Shown: positions 2,483 through 53,588 of the stretch, piece by piece
Layout of the letters: every line of letters begins with the position of its first letter
Position numbering within the stretch: the stretch's first letter is position 1
Origin: a virus
IMG/VR virus record: IMGVR_UViG_3300034069_000907
Span: 4,016-68,015 of that record
Length of the DNA: 64,000 nt
Reading direction: 5' to 3' (one strand)
Made by a program: the position numbers and the translations under genes
The notes under the pieces: generated by a model
What the model saw: only the letters and a program-made list of their open reading frames with translations
The model's database searches: none
What the model was told of the DNA's origin: nothing

Positions 2483-2875
2483 ATGGCACCGCGTCGCAAG
2501 GAAATCGCCCAGGTGGGCGGCGGCGACTCGGCGGTGATCGCGGGCCCCGGGTACCGCAAGCCCCCTGAGTGCAAATTCGAGCTCAAGACCGCCAAGGCTC
2601 GGAAGGAATACGGGACGATCTGCCGGAAGCTCTATGAGCTCGGCCGCCTCTCGGAAGCCAAGCACATCGCGGCATCGATGTACGCCTCGATCATGGATCG
2701 GATCGCCCTGGCTGACGCCGACGGGCGCCCGGCCCGCGCATCGTGGTTCACGCAATTGCAGAATCAGTTGAGGGCCTTGGATCTCGATGGGCTTGACGAA
2801 CCGATCGCTGCGCCCGTCGAAGCGCCGACCAACAAATTCGCGCGCATCGGTCTCCCGAACCGTCGCCAACGATAA
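2483..2875 (+). CDS. terS: terminase small subunit (P27-like)
   Basis: Directly upstream of and overlapping terL; KPPECKFELKTAKARKEYGTICRKLYELGRL resembles P27-family small subunits. Confidence 0.7.
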   Translation: MAPRRKEIAQVGGGDSAVIAGPGYRKPPECKFELKTAKARKEYGTICRKLYELGRLSEAKHIAASMYASIMDRIALADADGRPARASWFTQLQNQLRALDLDGLDEPIAAPVEAPTNKFARIGLPNRRQR

Positions 2876-4634
2876 CTTCCGGAACGTCGTCTATGACGGC
2901 GAGGAGGTTCCCGACTTCAACAAAATGGCGGTCTGGTATTGTCAGAACGTCGTTGCAGGGCATGTGCCGTGCTGCATTTGGGAAAAGCTCGGGTGCCAAC
3001 GCTTTCTCGACATGCTGGCGGCGTCCAAGCGTCTAGGGAGCGAGTTCTACTACAGCCCCGACCACGTAACCGACTTCTGCCTGTTCTTCGAGAAGCTCCC
3101 GCACGTCAAAGGCTTCCACGGCACGTTCGTGGCGGAGCCAGTGCAGTGCTGGTGGTTCGCGGCGATCTTCGGGTTCCGGGAGACGGAGACGGGCTTCCGC
3201 TGGACGCGCGCCGCGGAGATCTGGATCCCGCGCAAGAACGCTAAGACGGCAACGGCCGTGGCGATTGCGCTCTACTGCTCGAATTTCGAGGATGAGCCGG
3301 GCGCCGAATGTCTCGTGTCGGCCGGCTCCGAGAAGCAGGCGGACGTCCCGTTCAAGGCGATCCTCGCCACGATCGACAAGGAGCCGGACCTCACCTCGCA
3401 CCTGCTGATCGAGTCCACCAAGGATGACATCGCGTTTCGGCGGACCGGGGCCACCATGTCGAAGCTCGCGGCCCTGGCGCCGAACCTCGACGGCCTTAAC
3501 CCGCACTTCGTCCTGGCGGAGGAGCTCCACGCGCAGAAGCAGGACGTCATCAGCGTGCTCCGGACCGCGCAGGGTGCGCGCCGGCAAGCGCTGTTCCTGA
3601 CGATCTCCACCGCCGGCCGCTCGACCGCCAGCGCGGCCTACTCGGTGTTCAAGGCCGGTCAGAAGATCCTGGAGGGGAAGCAGCACGCGCCCCGCGTGTT
3701 CATCCTCATGTACGCGGCCGATGAGGCGGACCAGAAGAACCGGTTCGATCTCGGCGTCATCGAGAAGCTCAACCCGCTGTGGGGCGTGTCGCTGTTCAAG
3801 GCGGCGATGGATGAGGAGATCCGCAACGCACTCAACTCGGAGGCCAACCTCGCGGAGTACCTGCGCACCCGACTGAACGTCTGGAGCAAGGCCGCAGGGT
3901 CGCTCTTCAGCGTGGACGATTGGGACAAGTGCGGGAACCGGAAACTGAGCCTGGATCTCCTGGCTGGCTTCCCGATGTACGTGGGCGTGGATCTCGCGTC
4001 CCACTCCGACATCAACGCGGCGTGCTTCATGGTGAAGGTGGAAGACACCTTGCACATGGTCATGCGGTTCTGGATCCCGGAGGAATCGGACCGGTTCAAG
4101 GATGATCGGTTCGCCGACGCCTTCATGCGGTGGGCCGAGGACAAGGTCATCATCAAGACCGCCGGGAACCATGTCGATCACGAGAAGATCCTCGCCGACA
4201 TCCTGGACATGATCGAGGGGCACACGGTTCTCGGCTTCGCCTTCGACAACTGGCAGGCCGACTACCTCATGGGGCAGACGGAGAAGCGCGGTTACGAGAC
4301 CTTCCGCGTCTCGAAGAGCCCTCAGCAGCTTACCCGCTCGACGGATGACCTGATCGCCCGGCACCGCAGCCCGGAGCGGCTCGAGCACGACGACAACCCG
4401 GTCATGTCCTGGTGCGTCGGCAACGTGGTGGGCTTTTGGGACACGAACGACAACGTGCTCCCGAAGAAGGAGAGCAAGAATTCTAAGCAGTCTATCGACG
4501 GTATAGACGCTGGAGTTCTGGCGAATGCAGCCCGGATGTACCACGAGGCCGGGCTCATGGAAGGTGACGGGCGGGTGAAGAAAGCCAATCCGAACATCTA
4601 CCTCAAGAGAGGTCTTGCAGGAGCCGCCGCATGA
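2787..4634 (+). CDS. terL: terminase large subunit (start could be ATG 2925)
   Basis: IWIPRKNAKT Walker A, LAEELHA Walker B, TISTAG coupling motif, YVGVDLA and SIDGIDA nuclease aspartates. Confidence 0.95.
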   Translation: MGLTNRSLRPSKRRPTNSRASVSRTVANDNFRNVVYDGEEVPDFNKMAVWYCQNVVAGHVPCCIWEKLGCQRFLDMLAASKRLGSEFYYSPDHVTDFCLFFEKLPHVKGFHGTFVAEPVQCWWFAAIFGFRETETGFRWTRAAEIWIPRKNAKTATAVAIALYCSNFEDEPGAECLVSAGSEKQADVPFKAILATIDKEPDLTSHLLIESTKDDIAFRRTGATMSKLAALAPNLDGLNPHFVLAEELHAQKQDVISVLRTAQGARRQALFLTISTAGRSTASAAYSVFKAGQKILEGKQHAPRVFILMYAADEADQKNRFDLGVIEKLNPLWGVSLFKAAMDEEIRNALNSEANLAEYLRTRLNVWSKAAGSLFSVDDWDKCGNRKLSLDLLAGFPMYVGVDLASHSDINAACFMVKVEDTLHMVMRFWIPEESDRFKDDRFADAFMRWAEDKVIIKTAGNHVDHEKILADILDMIEGHTVLGFAFDNWQADYLMGQTEKRGYETFRVSKSPQQLTRSTDDLIARHRSPERLEHDDNPVMSWCVGNVVGFWDTNDNVLPKKESKNSKQSIDGIDAGVLANAARMYHEAGLMEGDGRVKKANPNIYLKRGLAGAAA

Positions 4635-41404: not shown

Positions 41405-41434
41405 TTTGCATTCTCCGAAATCCGAATTTCGAAA

Positions 41435-43126
41435 TTAAATTCCGTTGAGGGTATTCCGGCGCTTCACCACCATGGAGCGCCAGAGGCCGTCGAGAACCGG
41501 ATCCGCGCCGGCCTTCAGAAGCTCGGTGCGCTCGGGGAATGTCGCGGTGCCGATGTCGTTGACCACGGGCACGGTCTCCGCGGCCCCGAGCTCCGCGGCG
41601 AGGCGCTCGGTGAAGGCCTTCGCCCGCGCCGCCACGTCGTCGCCGGCACCTTCCCCGTCAGCAGGTGGAGCCGTGGGCTCTTCAGGCTTCGGATCCGGCT
41701 TGCGCTCCTTGGCGACGCTGAGGCCGTTCCAAATCGTCTCCATCTGCTTCTGGAGCGCCTTCCGATCCTCGACAGTCATCTTGCCGCTCTCAACGAGCTC
41801 CCGACGGATTTCCTTTGTGCCGGCCCACAACTCGGTGAGGCGCGCGTAGTCGACTCCCGGGGCCTGCATCTCCGCGATGATCCAGGCGCGATACTCCTCG
41901 TGTGACGACGTCGGCGGACCATCGGCAGGTGGAGCACCCGGGCCGTCAGCATCCGCGCGCGCATCGGACTGCGCCTTGAACTCCAGGTATTCGGGCTCCC
42001 GCACCTCGACCATGCCGGCGGGTGCCGTGCCGTCATCGGTCTGGACGTAGGCCTTGCGGTCCGGATCGATGAAGAACCGCGGCTTGTGCGCGATCGGCTT
42101 CACGCGAGCGAGGGCGGCCTCGTGCATGTCCTGGTACCGCTGGCGCTCCGTCATCGAGAGCTCACCCTCTACGGTGCCCTCGAAGGTCTCGTGCGCCTGG
42201 TCGACGTCCGACGTGGTCTTGCAGGTTGCGAACAGGTCGCGCGCCTCATCGAGCCAGGCCTCCGGATCGAAGGGCTCATCATCGAGGGCATCCTCATCCT
42301 CCTGGTCGGAATTGAAATTCACGGTGCTGACCGGCTTCTCTTCCGTGAATTCGGCATCCTCAACCGGCGGTGCAGTCGGGCCCTCGGCCGCCCGCGGTGC
42401 CGGCTTCTCTTCGTCGGCAGGGGGAGCGGGCGGCGCCTCGATCGCAGGCGCGCCGGGCTGCTCAGAAATCGGCACGCTGGCGATCGGCGCCAGCATGGCC
42501 TGGCCTTCCATCTCCTCAGCGGCATAGTCGTTGCCGATCTCCTCCGGGAACGCCTTGCGCAGCGCGGCCGCCTCGGCGCACTTCTCGAGTTGCGCGTTGC
42601 CGCGCTTCTTCCACATCTCGTTAGGCTCGGTGCTGCGGCCCTTCTTGGCGTAGGTCTCGAGCCAATAGACTTTCGGCCCGACGAACTTGCACTTCACGCC
42701 ATCGAGGTTCCGATAGACCGTCATCCTGGCCCACTCGGGGAAGGTGAGCGTCACCCCATTGCCAAAGTCGTGGGTGATCCGCGGGCCTTCCTCCGTCTCG
42801 TCGGCGCCGGCGTATTGCCCGGTGCGGAACGCAGTGGTCCGGAGCTCGGAGATCCCGGGCCACACAGTCTCCACCTCCATGCGGCGCTGAGAGTCCCACA
42901 TGGGAACGATGTGCACCGGACGCTTGAACGGATCGAGCTTGCGCGTCTTGCAGTAGGCAAGCGCCATAACGACGGAATCGATGGACTTCGCCGCGGGGTA
43001 AACCGCCCCGACCAGGACGTTCCACGACGTCTTGTCGATCCCCAGGCCGTCGAAACGCTCCGCGATCGCCGGGTGCCAGGGTAGACGTGGGCCTTCAAAT
43101 ACGGCCACCTGCTGATTGTCGCTCAT
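41435..43126 (-). CDS. bet: single-strand annealing recombinase Bet (RecT/Red-beta family) with long acidic C-terminal extension
   Basis: YCKTRKLDPFKRPVHIV, GISELRTTAFRTGQYAG, MWKKRGNAQLEKCAEAAALRKAFP motifs. Confidence 0.9.
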   Translation of the reverse strand: MSDNQQVAVFEGPRLPWHPAIAERFDGLGIDKTSWNVLVGAVYPAAKSIDSVVMALAYCKTRKLDPFKRPVHIVPMWDSQRRMEVETVWPGISELRTTAFRTGQYAGADETEEGPRITHDFGNGVTLTFPEWARMTVYRNLDGVKCKFVGPKVYWLETYAKKGRSTEPNEMWKKRGNAQLEKCAEAAALRKAFPEEIGNDYAAEEMEGQAMLAPIASVPISEQPGAPAIEAPPAPPADEEKPAPRAAEGPTAPPVEDAEFTEEKPVSTVNFNSDQEDEDALDDEPFDPEAWLDEARDLFATCKTTSDVDQAHETFEGTVEGELSMTERQRYQDMHEAALARVKPIAHKPRFFIDPDRKAYVQTDDGTAPAGMVEVREPEYLEFKAQSDARADADGPGAPPADGPPTSSHEEYRAWIIAEMQAPGVDYARLTELWAGTKEIRRELVESGKMTVEDRKALQKQMETIWNGLSVAKERKPDPKPEEPTAPPADGEGAGDDVAARAKAFTERLAAELGAAETVPVVNDIGTATFPERTELLKAGADPVLDGLWRSMVVKRRNTLNGI

Positions 43127-44320: not shown

Positions 44321-44517
44321 TGCATCGTCTCCGGAGTGGATGGCGCGTCCAGGACGGCCAGGAGGGTGAGGACGTTCGCGAGCCGGCGCTTGGCATCGGC
44401 CACATGCTCCTCGTACTCGAGGATCTCAGCGCGGATCTCTTCGGCATCGTGGCGGAAGGCCTGACGCAGGCCCTCGGACACCGGGGCGAAGGTCAGGAGA
44501 TCGGCGGGATCAGGCAT
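44317..44517 (-). CDS. small hypothetical protein (66 aa)
   Basis: ATG 44517 after GAGG; overlap with downstream start. Confidence 0.6.
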   Translation of the reverse strand: MPDPADLLTFAPVSEGLRQAFRHDAEEIRAEILEYEEHVADAKRRLANVLTLLAVLDAPSTPETMQ

Positions 44518-44639
44518 AGGCGCCTCGCGATTTGCGGCCGGCGCTCCAACGCCCACGCGCGCACAGCGGCGGGGCGGTCGGGTGAATGACGAGCTCATTC
44601 GTGCCAGCAGGAATTTCGGGATTTCGAATTTCGGAAATT

Positions 44640-44668
44640 AATTTGGCAGGGATTTACTACCCCGTAAA
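44640..44668 (-). promoter_or_regulatory. candidate sigma70 promoter TTTACG-N17-CAAATT
   Basis: -35 at 44668-44663, -10 at 44645-44640; same architecture as 47283-47311. Confidence 0.5.
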
Positions 44669-44818
44669 CCCGCAAAATTCCGGAAAATGCCTGAAAATAG
44701 CGAAGGGCCCCCCGAGTGTCCCGGAGAGCCCTTCTAAGTGCAGCCCCAGGGTCCAGGGCCGCTCGCGATGAAATTGAAATACACGAGTTTCTTTACAGTT
44801 CCAATACGCCTGCCAAAT

Positions 44819-45007
44819 TTAATTTGAGGCCTCGAGCGCCTCCACCGCTTTGACGGTATCTCCTGCGGCCCCAACGAGCTCGGCAATCACGAGCAGGATG
44901 GTGGAGACGGCGGGAGGTGTGTGCTTGGCGCGCTCGCGCAGGCTGTCCTGGTAGGTCTCGGCGACGAAGGCCAAGGCGTCCGAATCCGTGGCAAGGCTCT
45001 TTTGCAT
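44819..45007 (-). CDS. small hypothetical protein (62 aa), first gene of the leftward operon
   Basis: AAGGAG SD 7 nt before ATG. Confidence 0.7.
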   Translation of the reverse strand: MQKSLATDSDALAFVAETYQDSLRERAKHTPPAVSTILLVIAELVGAAGDTVKAVEALEASN

Positions 45008-45026
45008 AGTGCTCTCCTTGGGTCTG

Positions 45027-45082
45027 AAAAAGGAGGAGCCGGCGAGAGGCTGGCAGCATCTTGCCCCAGCATCGCCGGCTCC
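45027..45082 (-). terminator. terminator/attenuator hairpin just before the first leftward gene
   Basis: 11-bp stem (45035-45045 with 45072-45082) followed on the minus strand by TCCTTTTTC. Confidence 0.55.
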
Positions 45083-45653
45083 GAGATCCCCGCGTTCCCC
45101 CCGAAGGCAGGCCGATCCGGGTCTCTCACCGGATTGCAGAGGGTCTCCTCCACCTTCCGGCCGGGATCAGGCGCCCGAAGGCCCTGCCCGTTATTGCCCT
45201 CACGGGCATCTGTGTGAGGCCAGAGTTCCGAGCCTAAACGGGTGGATTAGGTCCGCCGTGCTGTCGGTCTCTGGCCTCTACGGCGCGAGGTGCTCGCAAG
45301 ACCGGGTGTTACCGGCGTTGTCGGCCTCCGCCGATTGAGCCCCGATGTGGGGCATCTGTGCGAGGCTCCGGAGCCCAACGGCCTTTCGGCGGACTCTCCG
45401 GAGCCTCTATCCGCTGGACCCTCGCCAGAGATGAGCAGCGGAATTTGAATTACGATGCCAGGATGGAATATGCGGGGCAGCGCTTCCATCCTGGCGATCC
45501 CCCGGCACGGCCGGCTGGGCAGTTGGTTGTGTGTGAACGCAACCCGGGGGACGTGATGAAACTCCCACCGATCGAGATTTCCCGCAATTAAATTAAATTT
45601 CGCGAAACTCGAATTTCCGGAAATTGACTCGCCCCGAAATTGGGCGCTAAACG

Positions 45654-45690
45654 AAAAGGCCCCGGCGAGCGCTACCAACGCTCCCGGGGC
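45654..45690 (-). terminator. rho-independent terminator-like hairpin
   Basis: GGCCCCG/CGGGGCC plus GAGCG/CGCTC stem, followed by TTTTC on the minus strand. Confidence 0.55.
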
Positions 45691-46223
45691 CGATGATCGG
45701 TTTCGCTTGCTGGCGGGACAACCGACGTAGCCACCCTTAGCGGATGCCGCTGAGGGTTTCCAGGGGACGCCCCTGGAATGGCGTCTGTTTCCCTCTGAAA
45801 ATCGAAATTGATCCGTAGCGTCATCGTGGCGATGTGCTCAGGCACGGCGCTGACCGTTGAACGACGCAACCCGCGGGCATCGAGAGTCCTACGGCGGGCA
45901 ACGGAGAACAGAGGACGGGGATCCCGAAAGGGCCCTGCCGGAGGCGTGCGCGCCAACGGTGAAGATGCCCCCTCCCGCGGGGATTCTCCCTGGGGGTAAG
46001 GGGGCATCTTTCGGGTTTCTCCCAACCCTTCCAGTTCAATCCTGAAACATACTCTGTTCTTGAACGATTCAGGTTGAGGAATCGCGCGAGAGTTCTGCCG
46101 ACATAATCTGGCAGAATTTTTTCGAGGCAGAAAAGATTGGACTGCGGATCTCCGCGATAGCTCGAGATCAATAAGCGCTGATCTTCACAGCCAAGATCTA
46201 TCGACCGTGAGGCGAAACGGGCA

Positions 46224-46264
46224 ACGAAATTTCGTCTAACGAATTTGGTCCGACGATTTTTCGT
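46224..46264. promoter_or_regulatory. two operator-like palindromes ACGA-N4-TCGT
   Basis: ACGAAATTTCGT 46224-46235 and ACGATTTTTCGT 46253-46264, partial site between them. Confidence 0.45.
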
Positions 46265-46506
46265 TCACGCCAAGTGTGAGTTGCTTCGAGATCATCCCTC
46301 GATTGCCTTCGAGAAAGCGAGATCCGGCGAGATTTGGCCGAGTGTTCTTTTTTCGTTCCTTGGCGCGGTATCTCGGCCTAACCTGCGGCACCCAAGATGA
46401 GAGCAAGATACGGCTTCATATTTTTTCGTCAGACCAGTTTTAATTCCGCTGGGAGTAGATATATTCGGAGCAACGCATCGACGGCCACCACACGTCGCAG
46501 GGTCCA

Positions 46507-47229
46507 GTGTCAGAGCACCACCCGATAGCCCACGCTTCCGTCGCTCACATGGTCGCGGCAAACCTGCCGCCGGACCGTGCGACCCGTCAGAAGATGATGG
46601 ATGACCTCTTCGCCCGTACGAACCTCGAGCGGGAGATGGTTCGGAAAGCCCGCGAGGAAGCCAAAGCAATGGCGACCCGCAAGATGATGGGCGAGCGCTT
46701 CGACATCGATCCCATCGCGATCCAGATGGTTATGCGCCTCAACTACATGCCACCGCAGCGCCGGGCGAAAGTCTGGACGCAGGTGCAGATCCTCGCCAAC
46801 GACATCGGCCTTGATGAGGACGTGCCCGTTGAGGAGGAGGAAGAGACCGGCCCCGTGTTCGATCGCAGCCGCACCGGCCAGCGCCAGGGCGGTTCGAACA
46901 TCGGCCCTGAGGGTGCACGCGCCGCCCGTGGCGAGAGCCGCAGCGTGATTCGCACCCGCGTAAACCTGAAGATGGCTGAGGAGATGATGGAGCGCGCTCG
47001 AAAGGGCCTGCCCATGCGCCACCGAGTCGGCCGGCCGTCGAACGAAGAGCGCGCCGCCCAGGCCTATGCCGAGCAGCGGCTTGAGGAGGAGTTCGACATC
47101 GCCCGGCAGAGGGATAGCGATCAGCGAGTGATCGAGCACCAGGCCTCCCCGCCGGCCGAGCAGCAGGCGGAGGGCGGGCACCAGGCGGAGCGCCAGGATC
47201 CGCCAAGGGCCATAGACCTCGAGGATTGA
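46507..47229 (+). CDS. GapR/DUF2312-like protein with long C-terminal extension
   Basis: FDIDPIAIQMVMRLNYMPPQRRAKVWTQVQILANDIGL aligns by eye with the GapR C-terminal helices. Confidence 0.55.
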   Translation: MSEHHPIAHASVAHMVAANLPPDRATRQKMMDDLFARTNLEREMVRKAREEAKAMATRKMMGERFDIDPIAIQMVMRLNYMPPQRRAKVWTQVQILANDIGLDEDVPVEEEEETGPVFDRSRTGQRQGGSNIGPEGARAARGESRSVIRTRVNLKMAEEMMERARKGLPMRHRVGRPSNEERAAQAYAEQRLEEEFDIARQRDSDQRVIEHQASPPAEQQAEGGHQAERQDPPRAIDLED

Positions 47230-47282
47230 TCGACCACAGCGGCCCCCACGAGGGGCCGTTTTAATTTCGGGCAATTTCGAGA

Positions 47283-47311
47283 TTGACGGGTTAATTAAAT
47301 ACCCGCAAATT
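47283..47311 (+). promoter_or_regulatory. candidate sigma70 promoter TTGACG-N17-CAAATT
   Basis: -35 at 47283-47288, -10 at 47306-47311; spacer holds CGGGT/ACCCG inverted repeat. Confidence 0.55.
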
Positions 47312-47340
47312 CAAATCTCCCCGAAATTACCCGAGTCACC

Positions 47341-51807: not shown

Positions 51808-51936
51808 GAATATCGAATCGCCCCCTGCCACAGCGCCTTGATAATTTCGACGGGGAATTTCATTAAAGGGAAATCGCGTAATTTCGGCGCGTCGGAAATT
51901 CGAAATTCCGAAATCCCACCCCCCCCAGGAGCCAGC

Positions 51937-52958: not shown

Positions 52959-53510
52959 ATGCTGATTCAAGCTCTCGACCCGGCCAAAGCCTGCGGGTTC
53001 GCCATTGGACCCGCAGGCGAAAAGCCGAATTCAGGCGTGATCGATCTCCGCAAGTCGGGCCAGCACCGCTCGGTCGGATGCGGCAACATCATCGCCTATC
53101 TCTCCGACACCTGGAATGTCCGGAAGCCTGACGTTCTCGCCTATGAAGCGCCGATGACCATCCAGGCCTGGCTGAACAACGCCAGGAAGTCAGGGCGCTA
53201 CCACGGCAGCGACGCGATCGAGAGCGCCCACGAGTTGAGCGGCGCCATCATGGGCGTGTGCGAGCGCTTCGGCGTCCGCTTCGAACAGGTCTACCGGATC
53301 TCGATGATGACGACGATTACCGGCAAAGCTGGATGGGGAGATCCAAAGCTCAACAAGCAGAAGATCATCCAGGGATTGATCGCCATGGGCATGCTGGATC
53401 CGTGGGTTACGGATGATGACCAGGCGGACGCGGTAGCTTTGCACGTCGCGGCATCTAAGAAATTTGCGAAGGTAGCCCCGCGGAATTTCGGGCTATTTTC
53501 CGGAAATTAA
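52959..53510 (+). CDS. RuvC-like Holliday junction resolvase
   Basis: ALDPAKACGFA (Asp), AYEAP (Glu), TGKAG...K, DDQADAVAL (Asp). Confidence 0.82.
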   Translation: MLIQALDPAKACGFAIGPAGEKPNSGVIDLRKSGQHRSVGCGNIIAYLSDTWNVRKPDVLAYEAPMTIQAWLNNARKSGRYHGSDAIESAHELSGAIMGVCERFGVRFEQVYRISMMTTITGKAGWGDPKLNKQKIIQGLIAMGMLDPWVTDDDQADAVALHVAASKKFAKVAPRNFGLFSGN

Positions 53511-53588
53511 GATTGACCGAAATTCGGAAATCCAGGAAACTCCGAAAACAGGCCGAGCAATCACGCCGCCTGTAACTCAGAGCATCCC

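Follow-up and report, generated by a model that had tools for sequence, protein, structure and literature searches.

The c4 antisense RNA of phages P1 and P7, which has the a1b1 and a2b2 sites and is represented in Rfam by the C4 family (RF01695), lies at the phage immunity locus, where regulator and duplicated targets are co-transcribed. In both P1 c4 and P4 CI, RNase P-type processing frees the regulator, which then acts in trans as a stable small RNA. The P4 immunity region follows the order seqA, CI RNA (seqB) and seqC: a single early transcript carries one complementary site with an identical short site on either side of it, pairing governs premature termination, and the sequence varies among related elements with complementarity kept (as summarized in PMC4825925).

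Here, we analyze a comparable arrangement in a window of 64,000 nt, by which we mean the whole stretch of DNA under study, part of a 68.7-kb IMG/VR virus record. On its + strand, where the rightward genes of this temperate phage begin, a conserved pseudoknotted RNA at 45852-46054 carries a 7-nt address twice, as copies A and C, and the complement of that address once, as segment B. A, B and C form the arrangement common to P4 and P1, namely duplicated targets flanking a complementary segment in one transcript, and, as in the P4 system (PMC4825925), the sequence varies among relatives while complementarity is preserved. The premature termination that pairing governs in P4 is, for the window RNA, something we infer.

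The window RNA resembles both the P4/P1 immunity RNAs and terminator/antiterminator platforms, and it is not a member of the C4 or IsrK families. Searches with the Rfam models, C4 (RF01695) and IsrK (RF01394) among them, found no match to this RNA, whether in the window at gathering thresholds, in 44500-46550 with E allowed up to 5, or in 10 relatives with E allowed up to 0.1. Unlike P4, the window RNA is without sequence or structure match to C4/IsrK-type models, has a conserved pseudoknotted core of ~200 nt, belongs to alphaproteobacterial hosts, and pairs B with C in a local hairpin beside a U tract, for which a cis switch is the simplest reading. It differs from P1/P7 c4 in giving no match to the C4 model, in having one address rather than two, and in lacking icd/ant-type genes downstream. 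The likeness to riboswitch and attenuator platforms lies in an A:B helix that closes a multi-helix core and competes with C for the 5' arm of the terminator; unlike known riboswitches, the RNA matches no aptamer in Rfam and its regulated genes are not conserved, and the competing 7-mer is hypervariable to a greater degree than known riboswitch P1 helices.

The rule described below concerns a whole family of alphaproteobacterial prophages: at the head of an early operon, two copies of a hypervariable 7-nt address accompany one copy of its complement. Should this address determine for which phage transcripts end or continue, the family would represent a P4-like RNA code of immunity or specificity, built on a new fold and operating in another bacterial class.

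The interval between the two operons and its motif copies

A gene-free interval of ~1.5 kb separates a leftward operon, comprising orf62, a 93-aa ORF, an exonuclease and a RecT-type annealing protein, from a rightward operon whose first gene, at 46507, encodes a GapR-like protein. Genuine genes in this region have GC3 near 0.8 and GC2 near 0.45, and the ORFs within 45010-46500 are all flat in GC3 (~0.6-0.66); the stretch is therefore non-coding, and the possibility of a hidden protein gene within it was ruled out on the same ground. Folding beyond that of shuffled sequences was found for the minus strand of 44990-45600 (z -8.2) and for the plus strand of 45630-46025 (z -5.3).

The divergent control region (45585-45640) is AT-rich, contains the palindrome AATTTCCGGAAATT and presumably holds promoters and operators; a sigma-70 consensus scan of this region gave no match. 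The heptamer CGAAATT/AATTTCG occurs 23 times in the window against 6.6 expected, a count reached by 0 of 100 shuffles. Its copies are concentrated between genes, in promoter-like stretches, and often form inverted pairs, as does AATTTCCGGAAATT at 45612-45625; examples lie at 609, 700, 41425-41436, 44612-44633, 45596-45641, 45803, 46225-46234, 47263-47328, 51843-51907 and 53484-53524. The element probably binds a phage or host regulator or else acts as a promoter element.

A blastn search against the phage record collection found nothing, protein-anchored searches by way of orf62, the exonuclease and the GapR-like protein also came back empty, and the GapR-like protein was not found in 401 genomes. 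Close relatives of this protein occur only on Logan or short JGI contigs, and the closest phage relatives are 82% identical in the GapR-like protein and 60% identical in RecT.

All five copies of the motif on which the original prediction was built lie in the gene-free interval, and its coordinates proved correct throughout: four GGGCATC copies are on the + strand (45204, 45350, 45875 and 46002) and one is on the - strand (45964). The 16-mer GGGCATCTGTG(T/C)GAGG likewise recurs at 45204-45219 and 45350-45365, identical at 15/16 positions, or at 16/17 with one extra base. The motif had been picked post hoc. Across the window, the 7-mer is not over-represented (27 copies vs 19.1 +/- 4.3 in shuffles), but 4 of the 6 exact AGATGCCC 8-mers in the 64 kb are clustered within 45204-46009. 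The copies are not independent events, because a perfect 12-bp inverted repeat (45962-45973 / 45999-46010) accounts for those at 45964 and 46002, one in each arm, and those at 45204 and 45350 are parts of a single duplicated module. The five copies split into two unrelated groups, on two different RNAs.

The conserved rightward RNA

The rightward RNA (45852-46054, + strand) comprises S1, address A, the helices P2, P3 and P4, the B:C hairpin and a tail, and its family is represented in some 13 phages and prophages of alphaproteobacteria. The window sequence matches the covariance model of this family, R1, over its full length with 151 bits (E 2e-38), being itself one of the five R1 seed sequences, and members outside the seed score 52-120 bits. 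The first lead came from a weak blastn match 5' of the RecT gene of a metagenome contig (L003), a location equivalent to that in the window, which prompted a pattern scan that led to three viral contigs; R1 was built from these five sequences and then found a further metagenome contig (L008). The 13 intact members come from viral contigs, metagenomes and Rhizobiales-type genomes, with R1 matches in prophage-like loci in 2/151 and 8/151 sampled Rhizobiales-type genomes. Two genus-level searches gave zero new R1 members, and the 4 matches to a looser family pattern are chance matches and not members. Short-sequence resemblances to the cobalamin riboswitch, RNase P-like RNA, group I introns and hammerhead RNA are unsupported by Rfam.

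A 17-row alignment has 87.8% of its cells in pairs, and in 22 of the 37 pairs both partners have changed; 0 of 500 shuffles match this, though the pairing figures are somewhat flattering since the alignment was fitted to the model. As a control, sliding the partners lowers pairing to 40-60%. The fold of 45852-46054 reaches -193 kcal/mol on the + strand vs -175 on the - strand.

The S1 segment (CCGUUG, 45854-45859, + strand) pairs with CAACGG at 45899-45904, toward the 3' end of the P2 loop, creating the pseudoknot. In a position-restricted test, cognate S1:S1' partners form 5.0 bp on average vs 3.7 bp for non-cognate ones, and 0 of 50,000 permutations reach this value, a count that, like the other permutation counts given here, overstates significance, as the 13 sequences are related and not independent; by unconstrained duplex energy, cognate pseudoknot partners cannot be told from non-cognate ones. 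A possible second pairing on the same strand, S2, between CCCGC (45870-45874) and GCGGG (45894-45898), was read by eye only. The P2 hairpin (45886-45916, + strand), closed by GUCCU and AGGAC around a conserved loop, is nearly invariant among members, with a compensated A-U replacing G-C in L008. P3 (45917-45935, + strand), an outer stem plus CCC-GAAA-GGG, shows both-side changes in 6/7 pairs and has GNRA loops across the family. The window copy is without the GGUGCAAUUCC hairpin and lies opposite a long structured leader instead of a repressor gene; member L046 carries GGUGCAAUUCC together with CCC-GUAA-GGG and a CCUCACC/GGUGAGG stem.

Upstream of the conserved RNA, the + strand transcript has a structured 5' extension (45655-45851) that is window-specific and not kept in most relatives. 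Genome members (L046, L052, L053, L054, L056, L057 and L059) mostly carry, about 20-45 nt 5' of the R1 match, a hairpin with a compensated stem and the conserved loop UGCAA(U/C)U within ACCGGGUGCAAUUCCCGG. This hairpin is absent in the window, L003, L047, L055 and L008, and L045 has one of similar shape with a different loop; in the window, L003 and L008, a structured extension of ~200 nt stands in its place. Degraded or interrupted copies of the RNA were also observed, at L058:1501-1681 (- strand), L060 and L061, the B:C hairpin of L058 having been lost to an AT-rich insertion beside an opposite-strand 295-aa ORF.

The genes 3' of the RNA vary by member and include GapR-like, RelA_SpoT-like, DUF5131 and methyltransferase genes as well as unknowns, and a comparison of upstream and downstream genes of R1 members revealed no common family. 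The downstream genes are unrelated among members, as would suit a self-contained control module. In L046 and L057, the next gene is convergent with the RNA, an arrangement more in keeping with a free-standing RNA than with a leader.

Individual members show further features in their surroundings. In L046, the product of the gene divergent from the RNA (2539-3231, - strand) is an RNA chaperone with a ProQ/FinO domain (Pfam E 1e-24), and a T-arm-like sequence, CCGUUCGAAUCCGG, lies at ~3735-3760 (+ strand), ~50 nt 3' of the RNA; this may represent part of a tRNA or what is left of an attachment site. In L052 (257-1486, - strand), the RNA is followed by a RelA_SpoT-domain gene, small alarmone synthetase-like and assigned to phrog_4773.

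The address, its complement and a proposed cis switch

Address copy A (GGGCAUC, 45875-45881, + strand) lies directly 5' of the conserved GAGAG-GUCCUACGG, adjoining the almost invariant CGAAAGUCCUACGG on its 5' side. Copy C is the identical 7-mer ~140 nt 3' of A, at the 3' base of a long hairpin. The 5' arm of this hairpin (45962-45973, + strand) contains B (GAUGCCC, 45964-45970) and belongs to the perfect 12-bp inverted repeat described above; the 3' arm (45999-46020, + strand) contains C at 46002-46008 and ends in the tail UUUCGGGUUUCU.

Each element has exactly two address copies, at fixed positions near +22 and +165. The A and C 7-mers are identical in 12 of the 13 intact members, across 7 address types (GGGCAUC in the window, GGGGGUC, GGGAACC, GGGAGUC, GGGAAGC, GGGUGUC and GGGGUU(G/U)), a degree of identity that 0 of 200,000 permutations reach. 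The B arms track the address (GAUGCCC, GAUACCC, GAUUCCC, GUUUCCC, GCUUCUC and others) and, with G-U allowed, are complementary to A/C at 7/7 positions in 9 of 13 members and at 6/7 in the rest. Cognate A:B pairs score modestly above non-cognate ones (7.25 vs 6.64), and pairing between the G-rich address and B arms rich in pyrimidines is loose in general. The original prediction had invoked the logic of P4 seqA, seqB and seqC for an action of the right-hand RNA on two sites in the leftward leader. This interpretation is partly supported, being right in kind and misplaced: the functional triplet lies inside the right-hand RNA, where A, B and C co-vary in 13 relatives, and pairing with the leader is unsupported.

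In the window, the B:C hairpin reaches -44.7 kcal/mol (z -4.7) on the + strand, with a 25-nt loop, the tail UUUCGGGUUUCU and a U tract of 2-4 U; every member has 2-4 U immediately 3' of C and an A-rich run before B. The U tract stands directly against the base of B:C, and the hairpin is therefore terminator-like; the terminator scan does not list it, owing to its long loop. When the window RNA is cut before C, A:B forms a helix closing P2-P3-P4, and when the full RNA is folded with C present, the B:C hairpin takes over.

We propose that the rightward RNA is probably a cis-acting termination/antitermination switch set by the alternative between A:B and B:C. The rightward transcript would begin with the conserved pseudoknotted leader RNA (45852-46054), in which the phage-specific address is written in A and C and its complement in B. 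Pairing of B with C, which supplies the lowest seven pairs of a strong hairpin abutting a short U tract, would lead to termination. Copy A, which sits beside the pseudoknotted core and would be made before C, could capture B instead; once formed, A:B would pull the hairpin base away from the U tract, and the polymerase would read into the early genes. The state of this switch may be set by the fold of the core itself, by a factor bound to the core, or by a B-type RNA supplied in trans, as in P4.

The leftward leader and rival readings of the motif

The two left-hand copies lie in a structured, non-coding leftward leader RNA of ~570 nt (45010-45585, - strand; -302 kcal/mol, z -8.2), which has two GNRA and two UUCG tetraloops on the - strand, the other strand having one GNRA and no UUCG. 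Leader module 1 (45189-45286, - strand; -41.8 kcal/mol, z -4.4) contains repeat copy 1 (45204-45219) and consists of a hairpin at 45216-45278, ACACAGAU and the small hairpin UGCCC-GUGA-GGGCA. Leader module 2 (45335-45412, - strand; -43.6 kcal/mol, z -4.3) contains repeat copy 2 (45350-45365) and consists of a hairpin at 45362-45407, GCACAGAU and the small hairpin GCCCC-ACAUC-GGGGC. The modules are 146 nt apart and share a layout of long hairpin, (A/G)CACAGAU and small hairpin starting with GCCC. Their stems have diverged with compensation (GAGGCUCCGGAG/CUCCGGAGCCUC vs GAGGCCAGAG/CUCUGGCCUC), while a 17-nt junction block, which corresponds to the 16-mer noted above, is kept at 16/17 positions; that the block was kept while the adjoining stems changed with compensation argues for selection on it, with no given role. 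In the leader RNA, the sites read AGAUGCCC and are B-type, like the regulator segment and not like its targets.

Leader homologues were sought in 46 related loci and 401 genomes (G239, which is unpublished, being counted only in this negative tally), with the contigs of the closest relatives, encoding P0005 and P0011, left out, and only chance-level matches of 25-45 nt were obtained. The double-repeat DNA pattern had 0 matches in viral contigs.

The helices of 10 and 9 bp that had been proposed between the right-hand RNA and the leader do exist, but their length is not above chance. The two RNAs can form 12 ungapped helices of at least 10 bp and 32 of at least 9 bp, among which the proposed ones rank 6th and 13th, and 60/60 shuffles reach at least 10 bp, with a mean longest helix of 12.4 bp. 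Opening the leader sites costs 6.2 and 8.7 kcal/mol, opening A 6.9 and opening C 18.3, which leaves a net pairing energy of ~-4.7 kcal/mol for A with copy 1 and an unfavorable ~+10.6 kcal/mol for C with copy 2; whole-length RNAduplex values are meaningless for RNAs this long. Conservation of the motif pairs, which the prediction also called for, was not found among the relatives: none has paired extra address copies, and three single copies over 13 loci correspond to chance. Pairing of the right-hand RNA with two leader sites is thus unsupported. Separately, GGCGUCUGU at 45780-45788 (+ strand) can form 9 bp, one of them G-U, with ACAGAUGCC at 45213-45205 and 45359-45351 (- strand); this pairing would cover the single-stranded part of the leader repeats, and its length is within chance.

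A P4/P1-type immunity, in which B would be released as a stable small RNA that pairs with A and C in trans and forces termination, is possible though doubtful, and we hold with the same reserve that its targets would be transcripts of the same or a superinfecting phage, with the variable address setting specificity. The order A, B, C in one transcript, with A identical to C and both complementary to B, reproduces the P4 layout (PMC4825925). The address differs among related phages with complementarity kept, as for heteroimmune variants, and the element is located at a divergent early control region. Nevertheless, B does not lie in a loop and pairs with C just 25-45 nt away, favoring cis folding; moreover, there is no sign of processing, the downstream genes are neither antirepressor nor replication genes, and the Rfam searches (E up to 5 for the window and 0.1 for 10 relatives) returned no C4, IsrK or other match. 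The cis switch is our preferred reading of the rightward RNA. The two B-type leader sites might pair in trans with A and/or C, or the reverse, and so couple the divergent transcripts, which we regard as unlikely; equally improbable is the accompanying model, in which the antiterminator could not form once A was captured, and binding of the leader would favor its own terminator at 45035-45082. Two of the six AGATGCCC copies in 64 kb do sit in the leader, on the right strand, within the best-kept 17 nt of two otherwise diverged modules; the address was defined independently from the family, with an exact 8-nt complement expected ~0.01 times per 600 nt; and A, for which a low opening cost of 4.1 kcal/mol is also given, extends its pairing with copy 1 to 10 bp (-17.8 kcal/mol). 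Against this stand the chance-level helix lengths, the net energies and the lack of paired extra copies in relatives, all given above, as well as the burial of the GCCC of each leader site in a local hairpin, the post hoc choice of the motif, and the absence from 401 genomes of a leader homologue in which covariation could be sought.

A stronger form of this coupling, in which the leftward RNA fills the repressor slot, its two modules displaying AGAUGCCC to capture A, block the antiterminator and force B:C termination, seems less probable still. If true, leader capture of A would constitute an RNA-only immunity switch, created from extra copies of the regulator recruited onto the divergent transcript. 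The address rule is directly testable, and the appealing idea of pairing in trans rests on helices no longer than chance. At the other extreme, the motif might be functionless, its leader copies a by-product of local duplication and its right-hand copies the arms of an ordinary hairpin, as the lack of window-wide enrichment and the dependence of the copies on one hairpin and one duplication would suggest. We consider this highly improbable: identity of A and C with a compensating B in 12/13 members cannot be a by-product, which refutes the reading for the right-hand copies, and in the leader the 17-nt block was kept while its flanking stems changed with compensation. On the preferred reading, a cis switch in the rightward RNA, the two left-hand copies would represent a conserved single-stranded-plus-hairpin junction in the separate leftward leader, and their match to the address would be either a coincidence or a lineage-specific add-on.

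The leftward leader would end in its own terminator before orf62. A terminator-like hairpin (-40 kcal/mol, z -3.6) with 11-bp perfect arms (45082-45035), followed by UCCUUUUUC, occupies 45026-45082 on the - strand, just ahead of the ribosome-binding site and ATG of orf62. This orphan small gene (44819-45007, - strand), 3' of the leader, had no relative among 5.8 billion protein clusters. Its GC1/2/3 values of 0.67/0.44/0.78 and its codon bias are of the coding type, and its ribosome-binding site is good. The gene is flanked by the terminator-like hairpin at 45082-45035 upstream and by a clear terminator at 44734-44702 plus a U run downstream.
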